From assembly GCA_964187785.1 (NCBI GenBank), contig OZ076409.1, positions 61,568,001 through 61,632,000 on the forward strand: a stretch of DNA of 64,000 bases, written 5' to 3'. Positions within the stretch are counted from its first letter, which is position 1. Every line of letters starts with the position of its first letter. The position numbers and the translations under genes were made by a program. The notes under the pieces are model-generated. The model searched no databases and was not told the origin of the DNA. It saw only the letters and a program-made list of their open reading frames with translations. The DNA comes from Amphiscolops sp. MND2022. Lineage: Eukaryota. Of the stretch, positions 30,362 through 63,167 are shown piece by piece.

Positions 30362-30380
30362 AAGATATAAATAGTGTTAC

Positions 30381-37902: not shown

Positions 37903-37975
37903 ACGTTGCTGAACTGAAGTATGAAAATTAGAAGAGGATCCTGCTTCTAATTTCCATACTTCAGTTCAGCAACGT
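37903..37975. repeat. 73-bp near-perfect palindrome
   Basis: ACGTTGCTGAACTGAAGTATG...GGATCC...CATACTTCAGTTCAGCAACGT. Confidence 0.9.
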
Positions 37976-38381
37976 TCATTTTTAGTTTACTTTGAACCTT
38001 TGTAACATAAAATCAACACTTTGATTCAATTCTTCTATGCGCAGACACTGTTACTGTTGCTCGGGAGCCTAGGTGATCGTGTTTTGACTGTCTAATTTGT
38101 TAAGTAACTCAAAGTTTTTCCCTGTATAAAATCAGGAAAACATGATTGGGGAAAAGACAGTTTCTCGATTTGTTTGGCAAAGTTATAGCCGAGCTGACTT
38201 TCTCAACAATTCTGCAGCTTTCAGCAAAAACGGCATCCCAACTATCGGTTTCTGGCTGGCCCCGTCAACAAAGTGGAATGAAAATTATTTCTGTGAATGG
38301 GTGAGTTGGCTCACAGCTTACGGTGTTCTTTTCAAAAAAAAGTAAAGGCACTTTTATTAAAAAGTTGGTTTATGTATGTAC

Positions 38382-38611
38382 CTTTTTTGTAGGAGTAGGA
38401 ACTCGGCTCCAACCCCGAAGCCACAGCATGTGATGAGGATGATGAGGAGAAAGGAGAGAGTATCCTTGATCATCTCAATCAACATGAGCACCTTGGGTCC
38501 GAGGGCCTCCACCACACTGAATGTATGGAGTAACTTGAAGTAGTTAGTCAGAATGCAAAGTCCGTAGAACAACTTCGCTGCTGTCATCCAGTTGCTGTTT
38601 TCTGTCGCACT
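38382..38611 (-). CDS. TRPM-like channel exon (S4, S4-S5 linker, S5)
   Basis: AAKLFYGLCILTNYFKLLHTFSVVEALGPKVLMLIEMIKDTLSFLLII matches the TRPM LL.IF.V...LGPK..M...M..D motif. AG/GT bounded, phase 0 to 2. Confidence 0.92.
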
Positions 38612-38810
38612 CTGCATAAAAATCATAGAAAACATAAAGTTATAACTTGGTAAATTTAGAGTCGCAGTGTCGAAAAAGTTCCCAAGAGGGGACTCGTGCG
38701 TCTCATACAGCTGTGTAGATGAAGTAAATATAGCATTTTCAAAGGGGGACCCTTTGGCCCCTTTAATGCTCCTTAAATATTTCCATATTCCACAATGAGT
38801 TAAAACTAAC

Positions 38811-38942
38811 ATCAGGAGTGAAGCCTCGAAGAACTCCCGCAACGAGCATGAACAGGGTGGTGACGAGTTCACTCGAATTCCACACGTCCGAAAAGTACCT
38901 CCTGTACTTCTGGAGAATGTTGCCGACTCCTGTCTTGGAACC
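38811..38942 (-). CDS. TRPM-like channel exon (S2-S3 linker, S3)
   Basis: GSKTGVGNILQKYRRYFSDVWNSSELVTTLFMLVAGVLR (Y..D.WN motif), phase 0-0. Confidence 0.9.
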
Positions 38943-39083
38943 CTGCAAAACGAATGAGGATAAAAAACAAACTGTTTGCCAGAAACTTATTGATGTCAAT
39001 GCTATTCTACACTACGTTTCATTCGTATTTCACAATGTGGAAAAGTTTGCTAGCCTACCCTGAGGGTAACCCTTATCGTACAA

Positions 39084-39293: not shown

Positions 39294-39958
39294 AGTACAA
39301 TTCTGCTACTATGATTATAGAAAACTAATTATTCTTTAATCATAGTGGAAGTTGGATGGAAATTTAGTCAAGCATTTCTTCTGCCTATAAGACATTTGCC
39401 AAGTCTCGATAGCTTAATATCTTTTCCGAGATGAAAAGCCATGGGCTTAACTTATTTGAGAAAACTATTCCAAGACGTCTCAGAGTCGAAACACGAAAGC
39501 GGCTTTCTGCATCTCCAAGTTTTGTAACTCGCATATAACAATCAACAACAAGGAACAATTCACGAAAATAGTAGCATTTAAGAATCGGACACTTCTGCTT
39601 ACAAACAGTGATGAATGAAAGACAGACCATAATTTTATTGTTGCCATTTTCATTTTAAATTGTGAAAGTGAGTTAAACGTTAACAGTGCAGTAATGAAAA
39701 AACTGAAAGTGCTTAAAAGGGTGTACAGAAAATTCAACATAAGTACTGAAAATTTCTCTAAAAAATACAAAAATTTACTTCCAGTTCAATAGTGATCTAA
39801 CTGCAAGTTATTGTTTGACCAATTATCCGTTTCAAACTTTTTAAACATTGGATGTAAACACAAATGGTTTATCCAACCTCTGAATGAGGGAGCGAAAGAT
39901 CTGAGTTTCAGGAAGTGGTATTTTCCTCAAGTTTGTGTAGTTTAAGAATAGATCTGAC

Positions 39959-40466
39959 CTGATAAATGACCTCTCCGAAAAGGTTAAACTGCCAGTACCA
40001 CAAAACCACCTCCATAATAGCGTGATCAGACCACCAATGAATCCTGTCATCGTAGAAGAACAACAGAAATGCCGAAAAGTACAACACAAACCAAATCTTG
40101 CTAAACGCGTACCACCAAAAGGTCGAAAAGGGGGTGTAGTAAGCGAACAATCTCAGATACTCGAAAGGATACTTAGCCCGGTGCAAAAACCCGATATCTT
40201 TCTCTGGTTTTTTCTCCCCCGCTCCGGCCAGTTTCGCAGCCTTAATTCTTTGTGAGTCGTTTTTGAGTTCGACAATTTGCCGGTCTTTAACGTAATCAAT
40301 GTTGAGATACAGAAAAGGAATGAACTGCGCCATGTTAAGCAGAGCTAGACTGTTGTTGATTCTCATTTCGCCATACCATTCTTTCATCAGAATATCTTCG
40401 CAACCAGGAGCAGCTGCAAATTCTTTGAAACCGATTCTTTGAGCGAAACTGATCGCCGTGCAGCCA
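39959..40466 (-). CDS. TRPM-like channel exon (end of MHR4, pre-S1, S1, S2)
   Basis: GCTAISFAQRIGFKEFAAAPGCEDILMKEWYGEM (cf. F.AH...Q.LL...W.G) through YYTPFSTFWW...EVVLWYWQFNLFGEVIYQ, phase 2 to 0. Confidence 0.9.
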
Positions 40467-40649
40467 CTGCAAACAACACGTCTCATAAAGTTCATCCATA
40501 AATGTATACAAGAAAAGTATATCATAGAATAAAAATGAAACACATGGAACAAAAAGCAGTAAAGTTTTGAAAGGAATAAAATACCTGATAAAAAATTAAA
40601 TTTTGTTGAATATAGTTAGTGATATCTACTGAATAGACCTCAGCGATGT

Positions 40650-41077
40650 TTTTAACGGGCCTATTTTCCTTTTAAGGAAAAAAGCCCGACTATTACAGTG
40701 ACAAGTTTTTTTCTTTTTTTTTTCGTCAGATAAAAGAATGCGTAGTTGACACTTTTTACAGAACTACTGAACTACTGGACCGGCAAATGGAAACGCATCT
40801 AAGTCAGTGCTAAGGGTCCCCCTCTCATTTATTCCATTTTTAACGTAAGATACAAAACCAGACGAGACTGTAGAGTCCCCCCTTTGACTTTTTCGGCACT
40901 GGGCGACTTTTTTCCGAATTTTTTTTGTCTCCAAAGGATCCCCCTTCAAATTTTTTGATGTTTTGCAACAAACTGAATTTTCAAAAAGCCCAAAGAGTTT
41001 CCCTTTTAACAATTTTGAAAGTTTTGCGCTTTTTGAGCCTTAGATATAGCGCCGACTCTAGACGTTCCCGTCTTGTT
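40650..41077 (+). mobile_element. HINE-like repeat copy
   Basis: AAAAAAGCCCGACTATTACAGTG at the 5' side and GCGCCGACTCTAGACGTTCCCGTCTTGTT at the 3' end. Confidence 0.7.
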
Positions 41078-41733
41078 ATGTTTTCATAACTGTAGTGGCA
41101 TCCTTAAAGAATGTGACTCAGATGTCACAAGTTGAAACTATTCTCAATTCTAATTGGTTGAGCAGGGACAGCTTTTCAAAACCTTATCTTTTCAAGATGT
41201 TTCAAGATCATTTCGAAGGGAGCATGGTCCAAACTTGGAAAAACTAACATTTCAATAGTTTTGTTCATAAGTTCAAGATTCCACTGTGCGCTGTATCTTC
41301 ACTTATAAGTATACGCATACGGCACTGTCAATGGGAAATCGTTCAAAAGTTAACAAATGACGTATATCTTTTAAATTAAAAAGTCTGATCTACAGAAACA
41401 TTTTTAAAACGTTTTCCATATGGTAAAAACGAAAATCAATCTGTCAGCCGCTGTTTTTTTTTTCAAATTTTGTTATGTTCAAATTTTACATTTTAAAAGA
41501 GGGGTTTTCCACAGGTTTTAAGATCAAAGATATTTGAACTGTTTTTAAATAAAAGAACTTAAAATGGAAAATGTTTCAGCCTGAGGAAACCAAGTTTCTA
41601 CCATTTTCGGTTTTCATTCTACCAAATTTTGTACAATTTCCTACGACTGAACATTTACCTGCCAAGCATATATTTTCATAGAATGATTTAAAGTCTTCTA
41701 AATGAATTAACCAAACAAAATATCTAAGGTTAC

Positions 41734-43465
41734 TGTCGCAGGCTGCCGCCTGTGACGGTACATTAATAACGACGTCAGCGGAAAATCAGGAAATCGTCCC
41801 AGGTACCCTACCCACGTTTTAAACTTTCCCTTACTGAAACTTATATTTACTAGTTGATCACATTCATTTTACTTATTCAAGTGCATTTTCACATAATTGT
41901 TCATGATATTAGTCTGTTAAAATTACGATTTGGAGCTATCCAAATCAAGTTGTGATTGAAATTGTAAAAGGTAGTTGTTGAAATTAATCAAAGCGGTAAC
42001 GTACAATAAGCAAGTTAATCGCGAGAAGGAAACGTGTTCAAGTAAGAAAACGTCCCTTCTCGGCGATGTAACTTTCAGCACGGTTATTAGCCAATCAGAG
42101 CTCTCCTTTTTACTAATTATGAGTGCTTTATTTATGGTGGCCGGATATGGCCAATTGACTAAGCGGCGCTAATTTGAATCAGTCCCACAGTCAAATGGAC
42201 AGCTCCGGCCAATTCGAGCTTAATGATGCTTTTGTTACATAATTGGATCAGTACTTACGCGGAGCTATTAGAATCATGTTTTTAGACTAAATGAATACGG
42301 TTGTGACGTTTTGATGTTTGTATACCTTTGATTTGGATAAAGGGACGATTATGGCCTTTTACCATGTTCTTCATATGTGCAATACATGTTATGAATTTGG
42401 GCCTATTCTGGCTTTGATATGCGAGTGTATTTTCGTGAATACCAATGCAATATTAGGATTCCATACATAGTAATACATTCCGTTTTTAGCTTAACATGCA
42501 GTAAACTTGTGCCGGCACGTGCCTTCATTTTACGTTACTATAAAATATGCAAATTGTGGTATTTGTTTACATCACACATTAAGCGGTCTTAACCGATAAA
42601 TTGTTTGAAGTTGCTACTTAAGATGATGACTCTGAATTCCATTCCTTAAATGTCCCCCGGAAATATGTAGTTGTCGGGGATTTTCTTATGATGATTGTAA
42701 AATCCTATGATTTGTCTTGATCAAACTATGTAAAAAATGTGTGTGTCATCCCTTTAGGGGTATAAATACCCGTACCCCTGCAGGAAGACTCATACTTTGT
42801 ATTTCTCTTCATTTGATAAAGACGTTCATAATACAAACGGTTTCACTGTTAACATTTCGGAATTGATAATTCAAGTATTCAATCCGGTTCGGTCTTAATG
42901 CCTACTACAAGAAAGCAAAAGAAAACAAGGAAATCTAGAGGATTAGAGATTCTCTCTGACATTGAAAACCTTGACATAATGTTAGGTGAAAATCACTTCA
43001 ATGACATGGGGAGAGACGAAAGTCTCGATGGAACTTCCATTAGAAGACAGGAAAGTGTTACAAGCAATAACTTAGAAAATGAGGAAATGAATCTCCATTC
43101 TGATCATAGAAATCCCGAAACTGGGACTAGTGCCGGTTACGACCGAATCACAGCAAGTATAGATTCTCAAGCTGAGATCAATAAGTTATCGTGTGAACTA
43201 AACTCTAGAATATCTAGAGAGATGGATGAGATGATGAACAGTGTTAGTTCTCAAATCCAGAGAGCCATAAGTGATGCCATCAATAACCAAGTTTTGCCAC
43301 AAATTCAAAACGTTATTATGGCCGGTTCAGGACAGGAGACTAGAAGGGGATGGGAGAGATCTGACGAGAGACCGGAAAGTTATTCCGAAGTTCAACACAA
43401 CGCGAAAACTAGAACTACTCTCAATAATGAACATGGTGATAAAACACAACGTAATGTTCATGACA
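41734..43465 (+). repeat. 5' LTR (1732 bp)
   Basis: Direct repeat of 52797-54528. About 9 substitutions spotted by eye, no indels. Confidence 0.97.
42761..42768 (+). promoter_or_regulatory. Putative LTR TATA box
   Basis: TATAAATA within GGGGTATAAATACCC, about 135 nt upstream of the gag ATG. Copy at 53824. Confidence 0.6.
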
Positions 43466-44592
43466 TGGTGACAGGAGACAACGAATCTCCAAATCCAGTT
43501 CCTGAGTTTCTCACAGGACGCATCTCATCCCGAAATCATCTCGACAGGTCCTTCGAGGACGTCAACCTCAACACGACGATCCCAGCACAACAGAGAATCG
43601 CTACGGCTATTGACTCCGACCCTATCACTCGACTGGCAGACGTCTTGACTACAATGCAGAATAGACCGACAGCCCAACAACTTACCATACGCCCAGTCAA
43701 CTCAAATACCATGACATTCGATGGCAAAAGTGAGAAATTCGATTTGTTCGAAGACCTATTTCACACTATGATCAAGATGCAGCCAGAAATGACTGAGCAA
43801 ATGAAGATCAATCACTTCCACTCTTTATTGAGGAAGAACGCTCTTCAAACGTTCAGAAATATCAGCTCAAGCAACCGACAAACTCTAGAGGACGTATTAG
43901 TCATCTTTAGACGGAAATACGTCAAGCCCGAGTCACAGGCGACTGCCAAACATAAATGGCACCGTCTGGTCTTCGATCCCAACACGATGAAACTGCCTGA
44001 CTTTCTCGAAGAATTAAACCAAGGAGCCGAGAAGGCGTTTGGTGATCATGCGCAGAAAATGATTGACAGCTTGCTTTACGCAAAACTGCCACCAAAACTG
44101 AAGCGGTCCGTCAACATGGCCAGATTAGAAAATGGCTCATACGATGAGATAGTTGCTCATTTGGAGAGAGAATTAGAGCTTAACGCCCTCGAGGAGTCAG
44201 ATGACCTACCGATGGCCACAATGACCTCCTCGACTACGAAACCTAAAACCCCTCTGTCCACAGGGCAACTGTCCGATATCACTTGCAATTATTGCAAGGA
44301 AAAGGGCCACATGGTCAAGGACTGCGAAAAACTGAAAAAGAAAAAAGAAAAGGATGCCCAACAAGGCAAGTCGACGCAGAAGAAAACATATCCGGAGTGT
44401 GGCATTTGTGGGAAAAATAACCACCCGGAGGAGAGATGTTGGCAAGGCGCTGGTGCACATCTTAAACCCAAACGCACTAGACCTGAGGACTCAACTGACA
44501 ACAAGCCCAATCCCAAGGCTCAGAAACCTCAGACCAAACCGACATCATCGGGCTCCCAATCCTCATATTCTGATGACGAGTCAAAAAACTAA
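42898..44592 (+). CDS. gag: Gag (564 aa), initiating inside the 5' LTR
   Basis: Intact ORF. Capsid-like region from TFDGKSEKF, two knuckles CNYCKEKGHMVKDC and CGICGKNNHPEERC. Confidence 0.92.
   Translation: MPTTRKQKKTRKSRGLEILSDIENLDIMLGENHFNDMGRDESLDGTSIRRQESVTSNNLENEEMNLHSDHRNPETGTSAGYDRITASIDSQAEINKLSCELNSRISREMDEMMNSVSSQIQRAISDAINNQVLPQIQNVIMAGSGQETRRGWERSDERPESYSEVQHNAKTRTTLNNEHGDKTQRNVHDMVTGDNESPNPVPEFLTGRISSRNHLDRSFEDVNLNTTIPAQQRIATAIDSDPITRLADVLTTMQNRPTAQQLTIRPVNSNTMTFDGKSEKFDLFEDLFHTMIKMQPEMTEQMKINHFHSLLRKNALQTFRNISSSNRQTLEDVLVIFRRKYVKPESQATAKHKWHRLVFDPNTMKLPDFLEELNQGAEKAFGDHAQKMIDSLLYAKLPPKLKRSVNMARLENGSYDEIVAHLERELELNALEESDDLPMATMTSSTTKPKTPLSTGQLSDITCNYCKEKGHMVKDCEKLKKKKEKDAQQGKSTQKKTYPECGICGKNNHPEERCWQGAGAHLKPKRTRPEDSTDNKPNPKAQKPQTKPTSSGSQSSYSDDESKN
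43466..43477 (+). promoter_or_regulatory. Primer binding site, embedded in the gag reading frame
   Basis: TGGTGACAGGAG directly after the LTR-terminal CA. Close to the tRNA-Leu-type PBS TGGTGTCAGGAG; tRNA identity not verified. Confidence 0.8.
44583..44589 (+). promoter_or_regulatory. Putative -1 ribosomal frameshift heptamer A_AAA_AAC
   Basis: Immediately before the gag stop. The downstream protease frame is -1 relative to gag. Confidence 0.7.
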
Positions 44593-47500
44593 CTTCGCCA
44601 CGACTCCAATATAACGAATTAATATCTGTCCGACAATACATCAGATCGGACCCTCCAACACAAACTTTCCACCAATACAATTAACAATTGATGGGCTATC
44701 CCTCTGTTGTCTGGCAGCAGCAGATGGAAAAAGCCACCATCATCACCTACAATAACACCCATTTGTTCCAGAAACCAATTCCTGTTTGGGACCCTGATCA
44801 CACCACCACCTTCACTACCCGATTCAGGCCCATTCCACTAATCGATGATTACAACCCGACATACATCGACCCAGACTATGGCAGAGATCCCTACTGGGAG
44901 ACCGAGCTTTACAACCAAGATTTACTGCAATTCCAATATGTCCTAGACGATATTGAACATTATAATAGAACAGCCCACGAGAACCCTCCAATTACCCATA
45001 ACAAGAAAACAAGAGCGCTAATTGAAAACTGGCAAATGAATGATGGCACAAACCATCCAGTGTTCCCAAACCCATTGGGGACCGAGACCCATGACAGCAA
45101 TGTTGAACCCATACCACAATCATTGCTAGACGAGAAACAGTTCCAGAATGTCTTAATCACTAGAGACGGTGAACCAGACTGTTTACCCCTGTCGACTAAC
45201 ATCAATCTCAAATGCAAGAAACGCATGTTGTACTTCCTAATGGACTTTGGGGAATTGACCATAGATGGACTTATTGACACTGGAGCGCTGTCCAGTGCAA
45301 TTCCCGAAATGGACCTCCGGAAAATTCGACTTTTATCTCCACAATCTGTTATCCGGGAAGGTCCGCCTCCGAATTTCCAAATAATGGTCGCTAATGGGCA
45401 ATTGGAAACTCCTAAGAGTACAATAGAGCTCAAATTCGAAGTTGGTGACATTGAGTTCCATGAAATCTTCATAGTGATGGAACATCTGACAGGTCCGATC
45501 ATTGGACTAATGTTCCTTCAAAGAAACCATACAGTGCTGGACATGAGACAAGGGATACTGAATTTCCCGTTCTTTTCGATGCAGCTCAAAACAGCTGATC
45601 ACAAGTATTCAAATGTATTAGAGCCAATTCTCAACCCTATTGAGATAACCATTCCACCAAATGATAAAGTCCTAATTAGGACCAATTCCCTACTCTACCC
45701 TGAGAATGCTGTCACTGGAATTTTGCAACCGAGCGACCTTCTACATGAAGAAGGCGACATCACATTTTGCCCAGCTTTGGTCACTCTGAATGACGGCAAT
45801 ATACTGATACCAGTGAACAACTTCACAGACCACCCTTATAAACTCAAAAAGGGACTTCATATTGCCAATTTCTCTGTCATGACGCCAGAACAGATGAAGT
45901 ACGTCAAACCGATAGATCCGGCATCAACCTGGCACCTTCTACAGAATGACCAGGAGCAGGCAGCCCACTATGTCAGCAGTCTCATCAAGACCAATAGAAA
46001 TCCGCAAAACTCTGAAAATTATTGGTTCCCAACTCCAGAAAACCCCTGGAAATCCGGAGGAACACACACCTATACAAAAACGAATCCTTCGAGAATTACA
46101 GGCCTTACAAGACCTAGAGACACTTGACCCCACCAAAGATGAAGACTCACGTGCATAATTCTTAGAAAACTTCGATTGGAAAGATTCCACCCTTACTCCT
46201 GAAGAGAAGGAGAAAATAGAGGAATTGTTAGTGGAATTCCATGACATCTTTGCACGACACCGATTTGATATAGGCATGAACGAGGACTTCAAGGTGAAAC
46301 TGACGCCTAAAGACGATTCCCCAGCCTATAGCCAAAGCCTTCCAGCTCCTATCAATCTGAAGGAGGACATCCTAGTCGAATTAGCCATGTTACACAAATA
46401 TGGCATCATCACCACCCTACCGTTCTCGAAATATGCGAGCCCAATATTCGCACAAAAGAAACCGAACGGAAAACTCCGACTCTTGGTTGACTTGAGAAAA
46501 ATCAACAACCTCATCTCGGATGATTATATCAACAACAATCATCCCGTCAGTACGCTAGTTGATGCCGCCCAACACTTGGCAGGCAAAAAACTGTTCTGTA
46601 AATTAGACTGTTCGCAGGCATACCACTGCCTACCAATGGCTGACCAACGTTCAATCGAAATGTTGGCTTTCAATTTTGCCAGTCGCACATTCGCCTACAG
46701 ACGTTTGGCACAAATCCTTAGTCGGTCACTATCCGCATTCTCGAGTTTCATGAGGGAATACCTCGACAAAGTCATCAAAGCGGATCAGTGTGCCCAGTAT
46801 GTGGACGATATCGGCATCGCAGCCAATGATGTTGACCACCTCATGACGAACCTGAGAGCTACATTCAAATGCATTCAGGAAGCAGGCCTTAAGTTAACAA
46901 TGCACAAATGTCATTTCGGTGCAAAAGAAATCGATTTTCTCGGACGGACTATTACCCCACAAGGCGTCAAACCCCAGAAACAGAATGTGCAAAACTTTCT
47001 GGAAAAGACCAAATTCCCGAAGTCGAAAAAGGCTTTACAGCGCTATTTGGGATTCCTAAACTACTACAGGAATTATGTCCCAAGACTTTCAGAACGCCTT
47101 GCTCCATTCTACAAGATGCTGAAGAGTGACGAAAAGGTCCTAGTATCGAAGGAATTAGTCCAGCAATTTGAAGAAATCAATAGGGCGCTAGACAAATGTT
47201 GCGACTTGGCCCTACAACAACCCATTCCGAACAAACAAATAGCACTAATGACTGATGCAAGTTTTGGTGCAGCCGGATACGCGGTCCTAATCGAAGACGA
47301 CCCAAGCCAGAAATTTACGTCACACAGAAAATCGTATGCACCAGTCGCATATGGATCAAAAACTTTCACCCCAGCGCAGATAAAGATGTCAATTTATGCC
47401 AAAGAATTCCTTGCAATTTATTTTGCATTCAAAGAATTCGGACATATATTTTGGGGTGCGCCGAAACCGGTCATCATCCTTACAGACAATAAAGCTGTCA

Positions 47501-49790
47501 CGAGATTTTTCCAAACAAAAATAATACCCCCAGCCCTGTGGAACGCGTGTGATTATGTCATTCAGTTCAACTTTGTCATAGCACACATCCCAGGAGCACA
47601 AAATACAGCTGCCGACTATTTGTCCCGATTGGAAGCAGATCCAACGGACAAATTGGTGATGAAAATTCGTGAAGATTTACAAACACTACCCATCGAAATC
47701 AATGTCCAATCCGCAGGGGTATCGCAAGAAGAACAAATCTTCTACACCAATGACGACGATGAGACAGAAGAACAGTTGTGGGCAAGAAAAGAAGCAATCA
47801 GGAAAAATCCAGCAACTGATGAACCCACTGTTACTATACAAACTCTGTCAACAAATCTAGTCAAGCAACACCCCGATATACAAGTCCGATTGAGGAAAAC
47901 GAACCAGATCATTATCGAGCAATCCAAAGATGCGGTACTACAACAATTGAAAGCAAAATTGCTTCATGAAGAGTATTCAGAAAATCTACTGCACCAGGAT
48001 GCCCGATATAGACATTACGCAAACAATCTGGAACGAATTGTACTAAAGGACGAAATCCTGACAAGGCAATATTTCGATGAAACAGGGAATGTTAAATACC
48101 ATCAAATTTTACTCCCGCAACATTTACTCCAGGAATTGCTCCAATCTCTTCACGAGACAGCGCATAAACATCCTGGGATTTCAAAAATGCTGCAGGAAAT
48201 TCGACAGAGGTATTACTACCCTAGCATGGCTAAACACGTCAAAAAGTGGGTAGAAGGGTGCGAACAATGTGCCAGAGACAAAAGAGTCCCTAACGCAACG
48301 ATCACACCTGAGCTGCTTAACTTGCCCGAATGGGACCTCGGACCTGAAGACGCCATGCAAATAGACCTATTGCCGAATCTTCCCCCAAGTGGTGGGTATG
48401 AAAACGTCTTAACAGCAATTGATGTATTCTCCAGATATTTGTTCGCCTATCCCCTTACGGACGCATCAGCGATCAATGTAGCAAAAGCGATCATTGACAT
48501 CATGACTAAACACTCATATCTACCAACGACTCTTATCACTGATAAAGGTACTGCATTTACTTCTACAATTATTGCGGAGGTTACGCAGATTTTGGGCATC
48601 ACACTCAAAAGTGCAACAACAAAACACCCGCAGACAATTGGGAAATTGGAGCGAACTCATGCCTCATTGAAAACAAATATCAAAATGGCATGTGGAGAAT
48701 ATCGCCGACAATGGCACAAATACTTGCCATTAGCAGTACTAAATCATAATACTACCTACCACGCCAGCATCGGTTGCGAGCCAACGAGGGTATTTCATGG
48801 AAGAATTCCATTTAATATTTTAGATCACAAGCTTGGAAATAATCCAAACGAGCAAATTAACCCCACAACCGAATTTGCTGAAGAAATCCAAAACCGGACA
48901 AAAATCCTGATTGACAAAACGAAGCAAAACATTATGCAATCGTATATCAAGTACAAAGAATATTACGACCGCAAAGCAAAAGCCGCTCCACTAAAGGAGA
49001 ACGAATACTGTTTTGTCTTACAGCCGAAAGCGGACAATCAAGGATCGAAAATTCCATTCCGCGATTATCGTTGGGTTGGACCATTTGTAGTCCAAAAGGT
49101 TTTGCCAAATGAAAACTATATAGTACGACGAATCAATACGAACAAAACTCAAATTTTGCATCGCATTCGTCTTAGAAGGTTTGTCCCCTATCAACCGCTT
49201 GAGGACAATTCCCGAGAACAACAGTTGCAGACAGATGAAGAAATTGTCATTCCGCAAGATGATTTATACGTCATAACGTGGGAAACCGACTTTGGCGAGC
49301 AACTAGTTACACGAGGCAACGAGACTATTCCGACCAGCATGCCGAACGGCCGAACGTGCCAGAAGCGAATACAAATGACGTAACCGAGAATGAACCGGAT
49401 TACATAATCACGAGTGACGAAACAAGTTACGCTGACCACGCGGCGCGGAACCGGATTGAAAGATTAAATCATGACGTCACAAAAAGGAATGAAGCTAGTG
49501 AAGCGGCTACCAATGACAAATCTGATTGGACGAATCCGACCGTTTCCCCAAAAAACCAAGAAAAATCATTGCCGAATACGGCAGATAGACCGGAAAACGA
49601 TGAAAATTTTACAGAAAGAAACTTGACGAATGAAAACGATACACAAAAATCTCCAAACAGGGGGGATGATATTATCGTGCCCGAAATATCCGAAAACGAT
49701 GCTAGAAATGAGAGTCTGAGCCCTAGAGGAGGGAAATATAACCTCAGACCTAACCCTAACCCAAACTACTCAGAAGACTTCAGATACTAG
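44589..49790 (+). pseudogene. pol: Pol (protease, dUTPase-like segment, RT, RNase H, integrase, acidic tail) with few lesions
   Basis: LIDTGA, KLDCSQAY, YVDD, MTDAS, ILTDN, HHCC, QIDLL / ITDKG / LERTH, WVGPF, C-terminal KYNLRP. Stops at 44682 and 46156, frameshifts near 46045 and 49350. Confidence 0.93.
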
Positions 49791-50025
49791 GGAAGACTGA
49801 ATTCAGTTCAGGAGATGAGTCCCGATTTGGATTTTCTTTTCTTTTATCCTTTAGCCCCTTGAGAGTCAGTATCTTTTGAATAAATAATGGGACGTATGAA
49901 AGATGCCTTACAGAGGTAACAATACGGGATCAAGAAATCAAAAGAAGGAAAGTATATAAATAAAGGCAACAAAACAAAAAATCAACAAAGTTTACAGTTC
50001 AAAGTACATACATACATATGTACAG

Positions 50026-51226
50026 TTAGTCTTTAGATGAACCAGGCTCACTGACTCCAGCAGTGGATGACGAAGAGGCGCGAGAAGCGCGACGTTCCAT
50101 TTTCCTTCGCTTAGTGCTAGTAGGGGCTTTCACAGCAGACATATCAGCTACGGAACATTGATCTTCTGGCGCACCACGGACCAGAGATTTTTGAGGGGTG
50201 GAAAGAGCTGCCCGGTAGGAAGCCAACAATGACTTATAAATCTTCGAACGCCCGAAATTGTCCACGTACGTCCAAGGATCATAATCGGGAGCAAATGCAG
50301 AACGCCCGAAAGAAGAAGAGAAGTCAATGAACTTGGCCAGATTCCCATCATCACTACAGAAAGCAACTGCGTCACGCACGGTAGCTACGTAACTTTGACT
50401 GGGAAGAATGACGTCTGTCAATCTGCTATGACGTCCAGAAGTGGAAACTGTCCCGAAAGTGACATCAGGATACGTGGGGCTAACAGACGTAGCGCACAAG
50501 CAACACAACTTGAACAAATAGAATAGGCAGCTACGATTACGGAGGAATTCCAGCTCGGACAGGAACTCAATTCAGGTAGCTGAGACTCAGAGGCCTCGAT
50601 GACCTTCAAGGCAGACTCTAAAGCTGACAAGTCAGCTTCTTGGACTTCCTCGTCATCAGACTGGATGGGCGTACTCGACCTTCGGTTCTCAGCAGTCGTC
50701 AATACTAATTCAGGAGGGTCATTGACTTGTTCTTGGCTCTGCAGCAGGGCAGACGCAGGATGTTTCTCTTCGTGTGTAACGATGCGTTGTGTCTGTTGCA
50801 TCCGTTGGAGCATAGATTCAGCATATGATGTTACATCTGGGTCACTGTCAGCACTGTGAGTAGAGGTGATATCATCAGTACGGCTTCGAGACAACTCTTG
50901 GGACACACTCGGATTTTGGATTTGTGGTCCAGCTTCGGTCGGTGGATTAGCCGCTGAAGTAGTGGTAGCAGGTCTGACTGGTACATCGGCAACTTCAGTT
51001 GTTTGATTCTCTAAATAAAAAGAGATAAAGTTTGGCGGTATGCTTCCTCGAAAAGAATCCATTCTACCGCATTAGAAACCTTCCGGAAGTACTTGAGAAT
51101 TTGAACAAAATGTGCTGTCACGCGCTTATTAGTGGAAACAGGAAGCTTATTGTGAACGTATTTAGCCCTGATCAAGCTAAGCTAGTTCAATATACGAAAA
51201 CCAGACCAACCTGTGCTTGAAGACAT
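50026..51226 (-). pseudogene. Antisense accessory gene of the element (putatively spliced, ~335 aa, one frameshift)
   Basis: Exon 1 ATGTCTTCAAGCACAG (51226-51211), GT-AG intron 51210-51011, then the 214-aa frame, switching near 50572 into the 163-aa frame ending at 50026. Confidence 0.6.
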
Positions 51227-52099
51227 GTTTTTCCCGGGTTGTTGCTCCAAAAAGAGTTGTTTTGAACTGACGATTGTGAGATGTGGATGGTGGCCTTTCA
51301 CGGTCGAGGATGAAGGGGAATAAGGATACTCCGAAGAGAATGCGTTGGACGTAGACAAATAGATGGCAATTGGGAGATTGCAGATAAAGAAAACAAATGT
51401 AAGGTGATCGGAATTAAATAGAATTGGAATTGGATGAAGCAATTGAAAAGTTGGAGTTCGTGGCTGAAGAAATTACCAGACTAATATTATTTGATTATTT
51501 ACATATTTAAAATGTACACGGAGTCTGCCAGCGAAGTGTACAAAGGACTTTGTTATTTACAGCTTATTTAGTTAGAGGCCAGTTATGGCCGTTTGCCCTG
51601 TTTTGTTTTACCGTTTGGTCCAGTTACCCTTAGTTAGAATTTTCGCCATCTTGAATTACTTAGATTTATTATTTTCGCCATTTTTATTATTTAATTTTAC
51701 AATTTATCGAAGCTTAACGCTGATTGGATGAAGCCATTACGAGAAGTTTTGGTGACGCGTGCCGCTAATTGTTTACAAGCGACCCGACCTGTTAATTACC
51801 CACTTGAGACGGATGTAGTTGATATTCATAAGTCGAGCGCCATTCACACCTCTTCTAGTGATGACACTGATGAGGGGTAAACATCAGGCTATCAAAGGGA
51901 ACCGACCAATTAAAGAATTCCATTCAGAAAAGTTTACGACGAATCGGGACGATTAACCTAAGATTCTCCCGCCGAACTGGGAAGTTCGGAAAAAGGCCCG
52001 ATTCGACTAAATTCTTGAAACTGATAAATTCATTCTACTACAAACGTCTCTTCAATACAGTCGCTACGAGCAGCTTCAAAAATAGCAAAAAAGATAATC

Positions 52100-52885
52100 A
52101 TGAGCAAATACAACTTAGCTAGAAGATTGTTCGATCTGGAGGAATACGACTCAGATGAGTCTGAAAAATCAGTAATATACATTTTCAGCAGCGAGGGAGA
52201 GTCTTCGGACTAGGAAACCGACTGCTCCACGGACACGGAGCAACTTTTTGCAAGAATCGAAAGGAAAGTCACCTCCAGCCCCATGTTAATCGGGGGCCGC
52301 ATAATGACTGTGGAGGAACCCTCAGAAGATGAACCAGAAGCTGGCCCCAGCTCTTCCCAGACGCAAACAGATGTAACTCCAAAATTTGACCACAGGTACT
52401 TTGACCAGGAGATGTGTTATGCTCCCCCAAAGAAGTTGGGAAAGTCAAGGATAGAAATTTGCAAGACTCTATTACCAGTGCCTGAGTCACCCATGTCACC
52501 GCCTGACCATGAGAGAGGACCAAGTTTGGACACCCCCCTGATGCAGCCTACAATGGGTGGTTCTCACGCGTCGTTTCATGTACAGAACACAAGGCCGTAC
52601 GAAGACGTGAGCAATAAACTGTACTCTGGTTGTATGGTGTGTGGCAGATCCTCAGAAGCAATAAAGAAAGAGAAAGTAGAATGGTATGTTGCAAGGTCCA
52701 AGCCGCGAGGAGAGCCCGAGTACATCATGAAAATCAGAAGGGAGGCATATGAGAACGGTCTCAACGCCGGGGCATTCCTCTTCATAACACCCGCAGTGTC
52801 GCAGGCTGCCGCCTGTGATGGTACATTAATAACGACGTCAGCGGAAAATCAGGAAATCGTCCCAGGTACCCTACCCACGTTTTAA
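52100..52885 (+). pseudogene. Accessory ORF-X (~261 aa, one internal TAG at 52211), ending 89 nt inside the 3' LTR
   Basis: ATG at 52100 is in frame with the 200-aa ORF. Acidic N-terminus, CMVC motif, C-terminal VSQAAACDG...PGTLPTF. The C-terminal peptide is conserved in the solo LTR. Confidence 0.7.
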
Positions 52886-54528
52886 ACTTTCCCTTACTGA
52901 AACTTATATTTACTAGTTGATCACATTCATTTTACTTATTCAAGTTCATTTTCACATAATTGTTCATGATATTAGTCTGTTAAAATTACGATTTGGAGCT
53001 ATCCAAATCAAGTTGTGATTGAAATTGTAAAAGGTAGTTGTTGAAATTAATCAAAGCGGTAACGTACAATAAGCAAGTTAATCGCGAGAAGGAAACGTGT
53101 TCAAGTAAGAAAACGTCCCTTCTCGGCGATGTAACTTTCAGCACGGTTATTAGCCAATCAGAGCTCTCCTTTTTACTAATTATGAGTGCTTTATTTATGG
53201 TGGCCGGATATGGCCAATTGACTAAGCGGCGCTAATTTGAATCAGTCCCACAGTCAAATGGACGGCTCCGGCCAATTCGAGCTTAATGATGCTTTTGTTA
53301 CATAATTGGATCAGTACTTACGCGGAGCTATTAGAATCATGTTTTTAGACTAAATGAATACGGTTGTGACGTTTTGATGTTTGTATACCTTTGATTTGGA
53401 TAAAGGGACGATTATGGCCTTTTACCATGTTCTTCATATGTGCAATACATGTTATGAATTTGGGCCTATTCTGGCTTTGATATGCGAGTGTATTTTCGTG
53501 AATATCAATGCAATATTAGGATTCCATACATAGTAATACATTCCGATTTTAGCTTAACATGCAGTAAACTTGTGCCGGCACGTGCCTTCATTTTACGTTA
53601 CTATAAAATATGCAAATTGTGGTATTTGTTTACATCACACATTAAGCGGTCTTAACCGATAAATTGTTTGAAGTTGCTACTTAAGATGATGACTCTGAAT
53701 TCCATTCCTTAAATGTCCCCCGGAAATATGTAGTTGTCGGGGATTTTCTTATGATGATTGTAAAATCCTATGATTTGTCTTGATCAAACTATGTAAAAAA
53801 TGTGTGTGTCATCCCTTTAGGGGTATAAATACCCGTACCCCTGCAGGAAGACTCATACTTTGTATTTCTCTTCATTTGATAAAGACGTTCATAATACAAA
53901 CGGTTTCACTGTTAACATTTCGGAATTGATAATTCAAGTATTCAATCCGGTTCGGTCTTAATGCCTACTACAAGAAAGCAAAAGAAAACAAGGAAATCTA
54001 GAGGATTAGAGATTCTCTCTGACATTGGAAACCTTGACATAATGTTAGGTGAAAATCACTTCAATGACATGGGAAGAGACGAAAGTCTCGATGGAACTTC
54101 CATTAGAAGACAGGAAAGTGTTACAAGCAATAACTTAGAAAATGAGGAAATGAATCTCCATTCTGATCATAGAAATCCCGAAACTGGGACTAGTGCCGGT
54201 TACGACCGAATCACAGCAAGTATAGATTCTCAAGCTGAGATCAATAAGTTATCGTGTGAACTAAACTCTAGAATATCTAGAGAGATGGATGAGATGATGA
54301 ACAGTGTTAGTTCTCTAATCCAGAGAGCCATAAGTGATGCCATCAATAACCAAGTTTTGCCACAAATTCAAAACGTTATTATGGCCGGTTCAGGACAGGA
54401 GACTAGAAGGGGATGAGAGAGATCTGACGAGAGACCGGAAAGTTATTCCGAAGTTCAACACAACGCGAAAACTAGAACTACTCTCAATAATGAACATGGT
54501 GATAAAACACAACGTAATGTTCATGACA
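52797..54528 (+). repeat. 3' LTR (1732 bp), carrying a second copy of the gag 5' end (53961-54528, stop at 54414)
   Basis: Direct repeat of 41734-43465. Confidence 0.97.
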
Positions 54529-56402: not shown

Positions 56403-56636
56403 TGTTATATACGGTTCAATCCGATTCTTACGACCTCTACCGAGATTCGGTTCACTTACATGAAAACTGTCTAGTGTCTACATACCAGCTGGGGTTGTTT
56501 ACAAACAAACTCAATCAAACGTTAAATTACATTAGATACATTTATACGAAGTGAAAAGCTGAGATATAGATTTGAACTAGAGATCTTTATTTTACAATAT
56601 TCTTTTCTCTTAAACTTAGATTACCAGAATACAACA
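56403..56636 (+). repeat. 5' LTR
   Basis: Direct repeat of 62089-62322. Confidence 0.95.
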
Positions 56637-56689
56637 TGGCGCAGTCAGCCAATTTTTAAAACAATTGAACAAAAACTTCTTAATACAGA

Positions 56690-59600
56690 ATGGCGGAGAA
56701 AAACATAGTCCCGAACCTCGAAGCGAAAGCCAGAGACGGGAATCCGGTATTCACACCGAGACAATGGCTAGAGAGGTTCCGGCAGTTCTGTAAACGGGAA
56801 CACAAAATAGACATCGCACCGCTACTGAAAGGAGAAGATATAACAGACACCGGGTGGACCGGAAAAGAACAATTGATTCGAGATTTTCTGTGGGGAGTGG
56901 GACCGGAAGCACTCTACCAAATAACTAGGGCCGAATATAAAACAGAACCCGACAGTATAAAAGTGAAATACTTAATCCGATTGTTCACCGAATTTTACAT
57001 GCCGAAAAGAAACACGTACCATAACCGCGGAGACTTCTTCTGGGCAAAACAGACAGAAGAGGAAACACCCGAGGAATTTTGGAGACGGTTGATCGAAATC
57101 GAAAAAGAATGTAACTTCAATACCATCTCGGCAGAAGAATTGTTGATATCAAAATACATGACCGCAATCACCGATAAAAAAAATTACGGGATGAAATAAT
57201 GAAAGAGAAAACATTGGAACTGAAGAAAGTAATCAAATTGATCAAACAAAACACATACGAGAAGAAAAATAAAAAGAACACAATACCGGAAGCTTTGATA
57301 TCAACAAAAGAAAAACAAATAATAAAGGAAGAACCGATACAAAGAATGGAACGATTCGGTGTCAGACCGAAAAGTAAAAACTTCGGAAACCGAACATGCA
57401 GATTCTGCGCCGCACCAAACTGGACACCGATGCACAAATGCCCCGCACTAGATGTTAACTGTAACAAATGCGGTAAGAAAGGACATTATGCGAAAGCATG
57501 CAGACAGAAGACAAACAGCAACCGAACCGTGAAAAGACTAACCGAAGACGAACCGAACGAATCAGACAGATCATCAAGTGAATCCGAAGAGAGCATTCAC
57601 CACATTAAAGAGATAAAGAAAATCGACGAAACAAATAAACACTTCACCACAACGCTCATAATCAATGGAGTAACAAAAGAATTTATAACAGACACCGGAT
57701 CACCAATATCACTAATGCCACCGGATGAAAGAATTAAAAAATCAACCGAAATACAGAAAATAACAAACCGATACCAAGATGTGAATAAAAACGAAGTAAT
57801 GTTTCGGAGAAAAATTCCGGTAAATGTCGAATACGAAAATAACAAACAAAAAATGGAGATTTTTATAACCGAAAGAACAGATATGACACCATTACTCGGA
57901 ATGGATTGGATGAAGAAATTCAAACTAACGATCAGCAAAATACAATTGGCCGACAACAACCAATCAGAACGCGAGAAAATATTCAACAAATTTCCGGACC
58001 TATTTTAAAACAACGAAACGATAAAGGACACCGAAATAAATATTCAATTAAAACCAGGACACTATCCGGTAAAACAAAAAGCAAGACCGATACCATTACA
58101 CCTTCAAGAAGACGTCGGACGTGAACTAGGAAAACAAATAAAATCCGGACACTTAGAAAAGATAAAAGACGTAGACGAAGATTGTTTTGTATCTCCGGTA
58201 GTCAAAACCGTGAAAAGTGACAAATCAGTGAAGATAGCACTAGACTCAAGAAAAATGAACGATAGTTGCATTAAAATGAGACCTCACATGCCGAATATGG
58301 AGGAACTACTAAACCAAATTTCGGTAGAAATTTCACGCGACCGAACGGTACAACTATTTATATCAAAAATTGAATTAGACTATGCGTACGGACAAATGAA
58401 ACTATCCAAAGAAACAAGCCGACAATGCGTATTTGCCTTAACCGGAGGAAAATTTAGCGGATATTACCGATTAAAAAAGGGTTTTACGGACTTGCCGACA
58501 TACCCACGATATTCCTAGAAAAGATCGACCGAACACTCGCATATTGCACATCGGCGTGGCTGGACGATATAATTGTAGTAACACGGGGAAATAAACAAGA
58601 CCACGAGAAGAAATTATTTGACGTATTGAATAAACTGGAAAAAGCCGGCTACCGAGCAAGCAAAAAGAAATCAGAATTCTTCATGAACCGAATAAAATGG
58701 CTGGGACACGAAATCTACGAAAACGGAATTAAACCGAACGAAGAAAAAATAGAAGCCAAACAAAAATTAAAACCACCGGAGAACACAAAAGAACTGAAAT
58801 TTCTCGGGGCGATACAATACATGGCAAAATTTTTACCGAAACTTTCGGAACAAACCGACCGATTACGAAAATTACTGAAAAAGAATGAGCCATGGATATG
58901 GGGAGATGAACAACAAAAAGATTTCAAAAAAATAAAACAAATGTTAACCGAAGGCCCATGCTTGGCACACTACGCAAAAACAAAGATAATTCAGTAACAA
59001 CGGATGCCAGCACCACCGGACTGCGGATAACACTATGGCAGAAACAAGATGACGGATATACGAAACCGATAGCATTCGGGAGCAGATACTTGAACGATAC
59101 CGAAAAGGAATATTCTATCGGTGAATTAGAATTACTAGCAGTAGTGTGGGGACTCGAAAAATTCCGATTTTTTTATACGGTAAGAAGGTGTATCTTTATA
59201 CCGATCATCAAGCACTAGAGCCATTAATCAAGAGAAACCGGAGCAACAGACAGTATAGCGCGCAATTAACAAGATGGTTAGACCGTCTAACTCACTTTGA
59301 TATATCAATACAGCATATCGCAGGCAGTAATTTGAAATTCACCGACTACCTCAGTAGAAATCCGGTAGGGGGAGCCAAACCCGAAGAAATCTACGACGAA
59401 GAATACGTCATCAACATACTTACCGAACAAGCAAAATTGAATATAAAATACGGACCAATATTCGCTGCCCAATCAGAATGTAAGAAAGTGAAAACCGAAA
59501 TAAAGAATGATACGGCCGAAGAACAAATTGAGAAATGCGGTAGCCAATCACACACGAATAGAACATTCGAGAACAAATACGGCGTGAACAAAAATAAACG

Positions 59601-61917
59601 AAACGAAGAAGCTACATCCGGGCAGTCCGAAATTAGCGCGCTAGAGCCAAGTTATTCAAAGAAAGAGAGTCAAAATGCAAATCGAATTACAAAAGTTCAA
59701 AATTCAATTACGGAAATTACCGAAATGGATCGCGAAAATTTTTACCACTGGGGCGCCACACGCGAAATTATGGAGATTATTCGCAGACGGAATAATAGCA
59801 CAGAGACACGCCGACTAGTAGAGCAACGAAATGGATTATCCCGACCAGGAACATTACGACGTCGGTATGACCACTACACTCAAAGAACGGTATTCGCTCC
59901 AACGAGACCCAACAAAAGAAGCCGAGAGGAAATTGCCGAGATAGACGCAGAGATCATGAGGAGAGCCAATCGATTGGGCGGCGGATACCGACCAATAGCC
60001 GAGGAAGAAGAAGAACCGGAAGAAATACGGGAAGAAGGCGAACTAGAAATCGAAAATGCCGAGACGGAAGAAGACAGCGTCATAATGCGGGGCGACAATC
60101 TACCAATAGTAGATCTTAGCAAATACAATACAGAAGGAAAACGGGCGCATTATATACAAATAAACCACATCGTGGGAAAATTAACAAGCAACAAAAAGAT
60201 TACCGAAGAACATATCAAAAAAGCAGAATTTGAGTTCATGATGGACTTAAAAACACTCATCGCAAAAACCGATGCAATCGATCCGGAACTAACCCGCGTC
60301 AGAACCAGCATGCGGAGAGAAGATCGAGAGACAATTCCGGATGGCTACCGAAATGCATTCGACAAACTATCAATCAGATGGGGATTGATCTTCGTCGATG
60401 ACCAAATCGTGATACCCATCGACTTGAGACGAAGACTCCTGGACATCCTTCATTTCGGTCACTCCGGTATAACAAAAATGATGTCAGAAGCACGCATATT
60501 CTGGTGGCCCAGAATGAAACAGGATATCGAGAACAAAGTAAAAGATTGCACAGCCTGCTTTGCATCAGGTAAAAACCTTAAATATCAATCACCGAAAAAA
60601 CACTACGGAAAATTAGAAAAACTAACCGAACCCGGCCAAGAATTACAAATTGATTTTACCGGAAAATTACATAACAAAAATATACACGGAGAAGTACAGA
60701 TACTAATAGCGGTAGATAGATTCAGTAAATGGCCGACCGTAAAAATATGTAAAACGGCGGAGACCAAAGAAGTCACAAATTTTCTATCGAGTAATTTTAA
60801 CTTATACGGAATACCGGAAAAGATCAAATCCGATAAAGGAGGAGCGTTTGTTTCGAAAAATTACCGAGAATTTTGCAAGAACCGAAATATTGAAATTGAA
60901 TATTGCACCCCCCGAGTACATACGGGAAACGGAGTAGTAGAAAGAGCAATACAATCATTGAAAAACTTAATAATAGCAAGTTTGGAAGACGGTATAAGTT
61001 TAACCGAAAGTGTAAACAGAGCACTACATGTAATGCAATTTCACAATACATACCGGACTAAAGTTAACGCCATTCGAACTACACCACGGTAGAAAACCGA
61101 GAACCGAATTAACGAATATCGTTAAGGACGGAAAATCATACCTATCTAATTGGTCAGAACTGACTGTTTCAGCGCCGAACAGACCAAAGATTCCCATATA
61201 CGTTGGCCGTGATGCGGACGAGGATATTACAAACCACATATTTATGGCGCGAACCAAAACAGAGGAGAAACACCTCGCCGAAAGATCGAAATCACCGAAG
61301 AAGAAAAATTCGTTTAGATACCCTTTTTACTTTGTTGAAAAGAATCATAACAAAAAATCATTGGAAGGAAAATCTCAAAAAAAATACAAACCGCTATAAG
61401 CGGAACCGAAAGTACTATAAAAACAGACTCCGGGAAAATAACTAACCGAAAATTCATTTCGGAACCACTGTTTCAGACCGAGAGGAAAAGCAGAAAAGAA
61501 CCGGTAACAAACGCAACCGGTGAAATCAACCCCAAAAATTGACACTGCCTACGCGGACTGGACGGGAAATACGGCCGTTGGGATGAAATCCTTCGGGACA
61601 TCCTGAACGGTAAATTGAAAATCGTCCAAAATAAAAAGCGGGCAGAAAGCGAAACCGACGATGACGACGAGGATGAAGACGATGAAGAAACGCCGGAAGA
61701 AACCGGAACACCGATAGTATATGACACATCCAAAAGAGACTGGAGATACGTGCCAATACGGACTAACCCAGAGGAAGACACGCTACAACTACACACCGAC
61801 AGCGAAATGCCGGGTGAGAATTCAGAATTACAAAAAGACGCTCTAACCGAAATAGTAAAAAACCGAATAGATACGGTAGCATACCCTATACGGAAAACTT
61901 CTGGGGATGAAAATTAA
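56690..61917 (+). pseudogene. Gag-Pol polyprotein of the 56403-62322 element
   Basis: Twin knuckle CRFC..H.CPA...CNKCGKKGHYAKAC, TDTGSP, ELDYAYGQ, WLDD, TTDAS, ELELLAVVWG, LHFGHSG...CTAC, QIDFTG / KSDKG / VVER. Several stops and frameshifts. Confidence 0.92.
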
Positions 61918-62088
61918 ATGTCTAAAACACATTGTATATATTACAGGTCCAATGTGGAACAGACACAAAGAGACGCCAAAGCCGGAGACAATCCAGAAGC
62001 CAGCAGACTTCCTACCCGAGGAAGAATCAACACCAGGCCCCTCAAACCGAATGTAGAAAACTACACGAGAAAAGAATAGAGGGGGAAA

Positions 62089-62322
62089 TGTTATATACGG
62101 TTCAATCCGATTCTTACGACCTCTACCGAGATTCGGTTCACTTACATGAAAACTGTCTAGTGTCTACATACCAGCTGGAGTTGTTTACAAACAAACTCAA
62201 TCAAACGTTAAATTACATTAGATACATTTATACGAAGTGAAAAGCTGAGATCTAGATTTGAACTAGAGACCTTTATTTTACAATATTCTTTTCTCTTAAA
62301 ATTAGATTACCAGAATACAACA
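62089..62322 (+). repeat. 3' LTR
   Basis: Direct repeat of 56403-56636. Confidence 0.95.
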
Positions 62323-63167
62323 TTCAGAAATTCACTTGAAATAATTGACAAAACTGGAGAAAAAGACCCCGTCTGTAGAAATGAATGAAAAACGTCAAAA
62401 GTAGGTAAATGTCTAAATCTAATAAGGTAACTACTTGCAAGATAATACCTCCCATCTCCTAAATGAAAAAATGAAAAAAAAGACTCCTAAATGAAATGAA
62501 GTCAAAATATTTCTATCCAGGTAGGCATTATAGATAGAAAGCAGCGTCAAAACCAGCTGCTGGACCAGTAGTGACACTTTGCCTCGCTCCAATTAGGACA
62601 CTATCTGCTCTCTAAGTTAGGAAATTTAAAAATAGTTCATTTAAAACTGTACATTATTTTACTTTTTTGTTAGTCGACTCTGTTTTAAGACTAGATATTT
62701 CCTTAAGTTTGAATATGTTTCTCCAGTAAAATGTAGGAACGAACATTTGACAAAGTGGATGTAGTGCGTGACTGTAAGGCAAGGGTGCGTGGGTTCGAAT
62801 CAAGGATGAACATTCTTTTCGGATTTTCACAAACGTAAACGACCTTGTTTTTTTTCAGCGCTGAGCGACTTTTTTTCGAAACATTTACTAAATTTCATCA
62901 AAGTGCACCCCATTCACTTTTTTGAAATTTCACCTTCGAAAAAAGCGTTTAGCGAGCCTAAAGGGTCTCATTTTGTGTATTTAGGCTTTCTTTAAAGCAA
63001 AAAAAAATTTTAAAAAAATGAAATTTTGTGGTTTTTCTGATGCTTCCAGTTCAGAAAAAGCTGTTTTTGAGTCTCAAGGGGAACACTTTCGGGGATTTTT
63101 TGGCACTGTATGATAATTAAAAAGTTTCACAATAACTGTCCTTTGAATATTTCAAACACTTTGCTCT

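Follow-up and report, generated by a model that had tools for sequence, protein, structure and literature searches.

The window analyzed here, a continuous stretch of 64,000 nucleotides from Amphiscolops sp. MND2022, contains a complete Ty3/gypsy LTR retrotransposon on the plus strand (positions 41734 to 54528), which carries an additional gene in antisense orientation. The element shows direct LTRs with TG..CA ends, a 5-bp target duplication (GTTAC), and the succession of gag, protease, reverse transcriptase (RT), RNase H, and integrase; the last three were recognized as Pfam matches in the gypsy order, and the protease is likewise part of pol. The 5' LTR (41734 to 43465, 1,732 bp) differs from the 3' LTR (52797 to 54528) by nine mismatches (99.5% identity) and includes the start of gag, about 600 nt of which lie within the repeat. 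It is followed by a likely primer-binding site beginning with TGGTGACAGGAG (43466 to 43483), which is common to other clades. The gag and pol region (42853 to 49790), ending with a low-complexity tail after the integrase, is divided into four reading-frame pieces in the window copy. Behind pol follow the antisense gene, a second extra ORF, and the 3' LTR. This second ORF, termed ORF4 (52100 to 52885, plus strand, about 260 amino acids), diverges from the antisense gene and runs into the 3' LTR; in the window copy, it starts with an ATG at 52100 and is stopped at codon 38. ORF4 yielded no Pfam match. It shows an acidic start and a CxxC motif (window 52100 to 52885; 2329 to 3186 in the sibling locus L039), is conserved across clades at 27-96% identity, and is a candidate rival DNA binder. 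The sequence upstream of the 3' LTR in the window's clade ends with CCGCAG and contains no clear polypurine tract, while GGGGAG-like runs are present in other clades.

Several other features were observed in the window. Exons of a TRP-type ion channel are located on the minus strand, which they share with the antisense gene, at 30315-30689, 38360-39011, and 39911-40615 (Ion_trans, E 1e-4 to 1e-3), and no further exon was recognized past 54528. Three repeat-bounded elements of about 5.8 kb with direct repeats of 220-235 bp are found at 8084-13896, 22990-28780, and 56403-62323; pol ORFs were seen in the last of them, and all three served as controls for the motif counts. An abundant dispersed repeat with the cores TTTTTCGGCACTATGCGACTT and GGCGCCGACTTGGGCCGTTCCCG occurs at 3400-7000, 33000-36200, 40660-41080, and 62800-63500, and near-perfect hairpins with arms of 32-58 bp, possibly MITE remnants, occur at 14434-14501, 37713-37828, and 37903-37975.

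The initial annotation of the antisense gene described two exons on the minus strand whose frames are joined after a single frameshift near 50572. Its individual elements can all be read in the window. Exon 1 (51226 to 51211) starts with ATG and contributes 16 coding nt (MSSST), and a 16-nt exon followed by an intron of 195-203 nt recurs in 40 of 40 sibling loci. The donor AG/GTTGGT opens a GT-AG intron of 200 nt in phase 1 (51210 to 51011), which ends in TTTATTTAG and is probably spliced, as judged from its conservation. The 5' part of exon 2 (51010 to 50573) continues in frame as ENQTTEV and encodes an acidic, Ser/Thr/Pro-rich sequence. The frame proposed for 50571 to 50026 belongs to the 3' part of exon 6 (50572 to 50026), which contains a CCLC motif, a YDPW motif, the basic KRRK tail, and the stop codon. 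The supposed frameshift, however, is actually a deletion. Compared to L039, the 3,173 nt separating one AATTGAG word from a second are missing, and the window retains a 7-nt microhomology at the junction (50572 to 50566); the deletion removed the zinc finger and exons 3-5. All of the 20 siblings examined carry about 3.17 kb of extra sequence at the break point. When 40 of 2,624 candidates from a DNA search of the same genome were scored, only the window's own match spanned the query, the other 39 stopping or starting at query positions 667-687, and the 30-mer across the junction is found in none of the loci compared except that of the window itself. A two-exon gene of about 330 amino acids with one frameshift, for which the presence of exon 1, intron 1, and both frames in the window could be cited, is refuted by these break points and by the deletion relative to L039, and thus deserves practically no credence. 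The deletion most likely arose from a template jump of the reverse transcriptase or from end-joining at the microhomology. It fuses exon 2 to exon 6 out of frame, leaving 202 amino acids up to the first stop if intron 1 is spliced. The window copy of the gene is therefore broken, and with its finger lost it would rely on protein supplied by other copies.

The siblings possess six coding exons and five introns and encode about 1,270 amino acids, so that the two-exon anatomy turns out to be that of a deletion derivative. In L039, exons of 16, 1934, 486, 135, 82, and 1160 nt are separated by GT-AG introns of 200, 71, 96, 121, and 70 nt, and the spliced product comprises 1,270 amino acids with a single terminal stop. 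A count by eye across 40 loci gave GT for 194 of 200 donors and AG for 195 of 200 acceptors; exon 1 has 16 nt in all 40 loci, exons 4 and 5 have 135 and 82 nt in 39 each, and exon 3 has 486 nt in 32, with intron lengths drifting. In a set of 44 loci, including 38 new ones with 25-59% identity in exon 6, the exon boundaries were projected from protein matches and gave GT in 160 and AG in 167 of 168 cases, and canonical splice sites extend across 78 loci, down to about 30% identity. Precise intron losses were found for intron 5 in three loci and for intron 3 in one, and the database relatives P0009, P0088, and P0064 are continuous across the predicted junctions. An independent scan for a first exon of 16 nt with an intron of 180-205 nt (346 nt in one case) identified it in 12 of 32 loci from two clades, with the peptides MSSST/MSSNT/MSSKA and MEMTS/MDSTS/MESAS; the other 20 loci, many with broken frames, gave no candidate. 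Since the splice sites are conserved, we infer that the antisense gene is spliced. The earlier proposal of an antisense, intron-containing gene inside the retrotransposon is supported by these six-exon siblings, and its explanation for the survival of the introns is accepted as established logic: the genomic RNA of the element would represent the opposite strand, so the introns would be copied along through the RNA stage. Intron 1 (window 51011-51210 and its siblings) is 77-97% conserved between subfamilies, compared to 35-79% for introns 2-5 in distant pairs, which suggests a regulatory element or recent exchange.

The frame of the gene is conserved in siblings, the loss of which had been named as a refutation of the initial annotation: the projected spliced product reads through in 10 of 40 loci, and the other 30 are broken by a stop or a frameshift. 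As judged from the pairs in which dS could be computed (it is saturated in many others), dN/dS amounts to 0.02-0.16 for the finger and core exons, 0.10-0.22 for the N-terminal half, and 0.10-0.46 for the tail, with control values of 1.4-4.3 in shifted frames and 0.10-0.18 in the mirrored frame, as expected.

The encoded protein begins with an acidic, Ser/Thr/Pro-rich part of about 430-480 residues. A basic run leads to the C2H2 finger, whose region of about 190 amino acids is encoded by the end of exon 2; an alpha/beta exon and a helical region follow, and the tail is basic. The finger (C-x2-C...H-x5-H) is invariant in 27 of 27 sequences, 19 of which give weak Pfam matches to C2H2 families, including U1-like and KIN17-like ones and no zf-BED. 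Pfam and PDB sequence searches with the exons and alignments retrieved nothing at the cut-off. A profile of exon 6 found 500 proteins at E<=0.001 (50%-identity representatives); none of the ten that were looked up is named, and at least one is encoded in the source genome. The homologue search returned no longer proteins containing exon 6, which is weak evidence. The order of finger, helix, three strands, helix, strand, and helical region fits hAT transposases, and we treat a descent from such a transposase as a lead that is slightly more probable than not. In the Atlas, the feature neighbors of two separate exons belong to the hAT group (Tip100/ZMYM1, ZBED5/FAM200, and ZNF862 types), at values below the marks for strong evidence: 23 of 30 matches carry PF05699 at 0.91-0.92, with a recognition of 1861 under the mark of 2300, and the Atlas value bearing on a BED-type finger is 0.84, which is a lead only. 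The predicted model of exon 3 (pLDDT 55) shows a helix, three strands, a helix, and a strand, and when the sequence is compared by eye with Tip100-type transposases, the stretches VRG and G[ND]F/L and the spacing of 30 residues to the first core strand line up. Against this, or neutral to it, is the lack of any significant sequence, profile, or fold match to hAT transposases. The PF05699 C-terminal dimerization domain is not matched in Pfam; Foldseek retrieved nothing at E<=0.001 with the weak exon 3 model, whose best fold match (Z 4.8, rmsd 7.6, 90 residues aligned) is unrelated, with no RNase H match; and these fold searches cover exon 3, the model of exon 6 (pLDDT 34) being unusable. Neither hhalign nor a custom profile aligner scored above shuffles against Tip100-type and Ac-type hAT alignments, 25 of 150 shuffles reaching the score of the custom aligner compared to 0 of 150 in a hAT-hAT positive control, and the accessory profiles gave no match to 34 hAT loci of the source genome. 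No free-standing catalytic donor was found among the best 100-150 of several thousand candidates, and no terminal inverted repeats were seen around the gene. As judged by eye, the protein does not show the catalytic features of a hAT transposase: the DDE triad and the CxxH and RW motifs, invariant in the hAT alignment A5, have no evident conserved equivalent in the alignments A4, A7, and A8.

The gene runs antisense, with pol on one side and ORF4 or the LTR on the other, in 20 of 20 and in 35 of 38 divergent loci, the other three being borne by a CACTA transposon. Integrase, ORF4, and exon 6 (50, 48, and 50 loci) separate into four identical clades, and no locus has its nearest neighbor in another clade. 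Cassettes were swapped freely within the window's clade, with, for example, 99% identity in the integrase and 59% in exon 6, while no swap between clades was seen in 50 loci. A further family with 21-27% identity and at least 150 copies also possesses a divergent ORF4-like neighbor. One such relative (L270, 5974-10000) contains GACG/GTCA palindromes with a 9-nt spacer, five times each in 5.5 kb, which possibly represent a fourth motif besides those described below.

The CACTA carrier is an element of 35.3 kb (L217 510 to L201 5812; G000:C2, about 29.299-29.334 Mb) with a 37-bp terminal inverted repeat starting with CCCCAG and 2-bp target duplications in four of four copies. CCC ends together with duplications of 2 bp are features of animal EnSpm elements. 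Its transposase matches DUF1258 above the Pfam cut-off (E 4e-9) and Transposase_21 (E 0.002) and DUF4218 (E 0.003) below it, and 12 transposase sequences are at least 91% identical. Two further ORFs of the carrier are SET-like (Pfam E 0.015 and 0.075), and pieces resembling BEN were seen by eye, with no Pfam match; seven CACTA relatives likewise contain SET-like and BEN-like ORFs, each with its own tandem arrays. A gypsy-like element with an env-like ORF after the integrase is located beside the CACTA insertion (L219 544 to L218 4292). The CACTA-borne gene retains introns 2-5 and is 72-76% identical to that of gypsy clade C, and the carriers gave no match to ORF4 or integrase. In the first of two variants only, a remnant of the clade-C pol tail was seen to adjoin the gene on the opposite strand (60% over 78 amino acids, E 7e-18), which indicates that gypsy was the donor and CACTA the recipient, and that the transfer took place as DNA. 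Between the two variants, identity is 75% and synonymous sites are saturated, and they go back to one or two captures (support 0.63). Arrays of 88 bp in the CACTA carriers are similar to the pol tail of clade C (68-74% over 110-160 nt), and it was this resemblance that prompted a scan for repeated motifs.

The scan covered all 4-mer palindromes with spacers of 0-12 nt, without bias. GGAC-N5-GTCC occurred 117 times in 30 loci, compared to a mean of 5.5 for other spacers; the loci are related to each other, and this count and the following ones are not independent. The clades differ sharply in their motifs. The window's clade W (13 loci) contains GGCC-N6-GGCC 44 times against 0.4, and GGAC-N5-GTCC not at all; clade Y (14 loci) contains GGAC-N5-GTCC 73 times against 1.8, and GGCC-N6-GGCC not at all; and clade X (8 loci) contains both, GGAC-N5-GTCC 49 and GGCC-N6-GGCC 14 times. 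Clade C has neither palindrome and instead shows the direct repeat GGAC-N7-RGAC six times against 0.33 expected, with a p of about 1e-6 that is insufficient given the number of patterns scanned. Whole elements, counted with exclusion of a ninth stretch that is a tandem array, contain 9, 12, and 10 GGAC-N5-GTCC sites (about 0.4 expected; 0, 0, and 1 in the flanks), and those of the window's clade 5, 3, and 2 GGCC-N6-GGCC sites (0 in the flanks). The three plain gypsies in the window contain none of the palindromes. In all, the case for a lineage-specific repeated motif is strong for clades X, Y, and pooled W and weak for clade C alone. Half-sites are fixed and spacer letters vary. The LTR, the spacer ahead of the gene, and the pol tail repeatedly contain sites, some of which lie inside the pol coding sequence. 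The pol tail also shows short tandem duplications, 66-96 bp long (L152-L164, L177-L196), which often contain the clade's motif in each unit.

In the window, GGCC-N6-GGCC sites are located at 42139-42152 in the 5' LTR (with one-mismatch sites at 42197, 42343, 42400, and 43320), at 53202-53215 in the 3' LTR, and at 51577-51590 in the spacer between the antisense gene and ORF4, likely a divergent promoter. The signal in this element is modest, with two perfect sites and eight with at most one mismatch scored, compared to a mean of 1.2 and a maximum of 6 in 200 shuffles; GGCC-N6-GGCC is not among the top patterns of this element taken alone, and its repeated 12-mers do not exceed those of shuffles. 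The CACTA carriers contain 23 and 40 copies of GGAC-N7-RGAC, the motif of the donor clade C, compared to 0-6 in the 20-30 kb covered of each of seven CACTA relatives that lack the gene; two of these reach 6, and most have tandem arrays of their own, indicating that this CACTA group tends to form arrays in general. The sequence of the finger helix changes along with the motif: it is G[AS]REI in the two clades that have a motif in common, GP[YE]EI or GTMEI in the window's clade, and [GA][AV]AEV in the third. Because integrase, ORF4, and the antisense gene share the same four clades and the motif follows the whole element, this correspondence amounts to only about three independent contrasts, and the gypsy data agree just as well with ORF4 or a host factor.

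By its position, the gene is a member of the antisense aORFs of gypsy elements, represented by aORF-3R (PMC7264820, PMC11963269). In the passages of these papers considered here, aORF-3R is similarly placed antisense between pol and the 3' LTR and kept in most copies, and its own upstream promoter and a nuclear or DNA-binding role have been proposed. The gene described here differs by its animal host and its five introns (the word "intron" being absent from the considered text of PMC11963269), by its size of about 1,270 amino acids with a C2H2 finger, and by the divergent second ORF and the clade-specific motifs; moreover, it is shared with a DNA transposon, whereas the plant aORFs are described as lacking similarity to other elements in the respective part of PMC7264820. 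Membership in the TRP28 ORFs of Retand is rejected, as PF04195 (Transposase_28) was not matched when all exons and 62 relatives were scanned with Pfam, and the passages available from PMC5408684 and PMC8220671 mention no gene of the kind described here. VANC of the Arabidopsis VANDAL (Mutator) transposons, as far as described in the sections used of PMC5735166, resembles the antisense gene in that an accessory gene varies much more than the core enzyme and has family-specific target motifs multiplied through tandem repeats; here, however, the carrier is an LTR retrotransposon, the motifs are spaced and two-part, some lie in coding sequence, and binding and relief from silencing are predicted roles. 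The Pfam domains of VANC (DUF1985, DUF287) and TnpA are not matched in the antisense protein. TnpA of Spm/CACTA is likewise an element-encoded regulator with lineage-specific motif clusters, for which an origin from a transposase that lost its catalytic activity has been proposed (bioRxiv 10.64898/2026.08.24.746577, in the portion considered). It differs in having tandem HTH domains, in its reported restriction to flowering plants, and in serving its own element class, and the words "LTR" and "retrotransposon" do not occur in that portion of the text; the gene described here encodes a C2H2 finger and moved from a retrotransposon into CACTA. HBZ of HTLV-1 and the related APH-2/3/4 are nuclear regulators also made from a spliced antisense transcript of a reverse-transcribing element, but HBZ starts in the 3' LTR and is a small bZIP protein acting through host factors (PMC10186651, in the passages considered), whereas the gene described here begins at a distance of about 1.6 kb from the LTR, ahead of it, and contains five introns.

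Starting from the observed anatomy, conservation, and purifying selection of the gene, its clade-specific motifs, and its capture by CACTA, we consider it an even matter whether the antisense protein, as a predicted dimer, binds the two-part motif of its own clade and thereby activates its element or shields it from silencing by the host. The gene would be transcribed from the spacer common with ORF4 and then spliced, the basic tails would direct the protein to the nucleus, the fingers of the dimer may read the two half-sites, and the acidic N-terminal half may bring the machinery of transcription or chromatin to the LTR and the gene's own promoter, similarly to the mode of action described for plant VANC (PMC5735166) and TnpA (bioRxiv 10.64898/2026.08.24.746577) in the parts of these papers cited above. 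That a DNA transposon retained the gene speaks against a function limited to reverse transcription. Activation and repression would leave the same traces in the sequence. An extended version of this proposal, in which a disarmed, hAT-derived dimer forms a sequence-specific self-recognition and anti-silencing system whose finger and motif co-diverge by clade, thereby confining cassette swaps to compatible lineages, and which was stolen by CACTA, is conceivable but rather doubtful.

It appears unlikely that the motif is instead read by ORF4 or a host transcription factor, with the antisense protein serving in RNA export, nuclear import, or the steering of integration. The coincidence of the ORF4 and integrase clades with those of the antisense gene would agree with such a division of labor, as would the U1-like and KIN17-like families among the weak matches of the finger and the RNA-export role possible for accessory proteins of animal gypsy elements (Cer1 CERV, PMC10309623, in the passage considered); yet the CACTA carriers kept the antisense gene together with the donor-clade motif and without ORF4 or pol, export of genomic RNA would be useless to a DNA transposon, and both the plain gypsies in the window and the flanking DNA lack the motifs. 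A protein that binds the motif but dampens its element, in copy-number control or in a latency like that of HTLV-1 under HBZ, or that tethers DNA during integration, would draw on the same motif evidence, including the sites within the pol coding sequence, and HBZ is a precedent as a spliced antisense nuclear protein which lowers expression from the 5' LTR (PMC10186651, as far as considered). We regard this as quite unlikely, since, as we would argue, cheaters could discard a pure repressor, whereas all clade members examined retain the gene and another transposon class took it up, and since the sites cluster in the LTR and the spacer. The notion of a dead nested DNA transposon or host gene that is passively carried along might invoke the stops and frameshifts in 30 of 40 siblings and the possible hAT resemblance, but it is largely refuted and highly improbable in view of dN/dS values far below 1 between subfamilies with saturated synonymous sites, fixed exon lengths next to drifting intron lengths, conserved splice sites, and a position and orientation that are constant in 55 of 58 divergent loci.

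The literature cited here, as far as considered, leaves open what antisense extra genes do in LTR retrotransposons (PMC7264820, PMC11963269), and in it sequence-specific regulators encoded by the elements themselves have been shown only for plant DNA transposons (VANC, TnpA). Literature searches, with most subscription journals and Repbase outside their coverage, yielded no description of a gene like the present one. The antisense family provides a candidate for such a regulator in an animal retrotransposon; its protein domain can be named, and three target motifs are predicted for it. It also represents a multi-intron gene that persists in an element copied through RNA and that was passed, introns included, from a retrotransposon to a DNA transposon. 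If the more doubtful self-recognition proposal were true, a giant CACTA element would have taken over a portable gene and multiplied the matching target sites.
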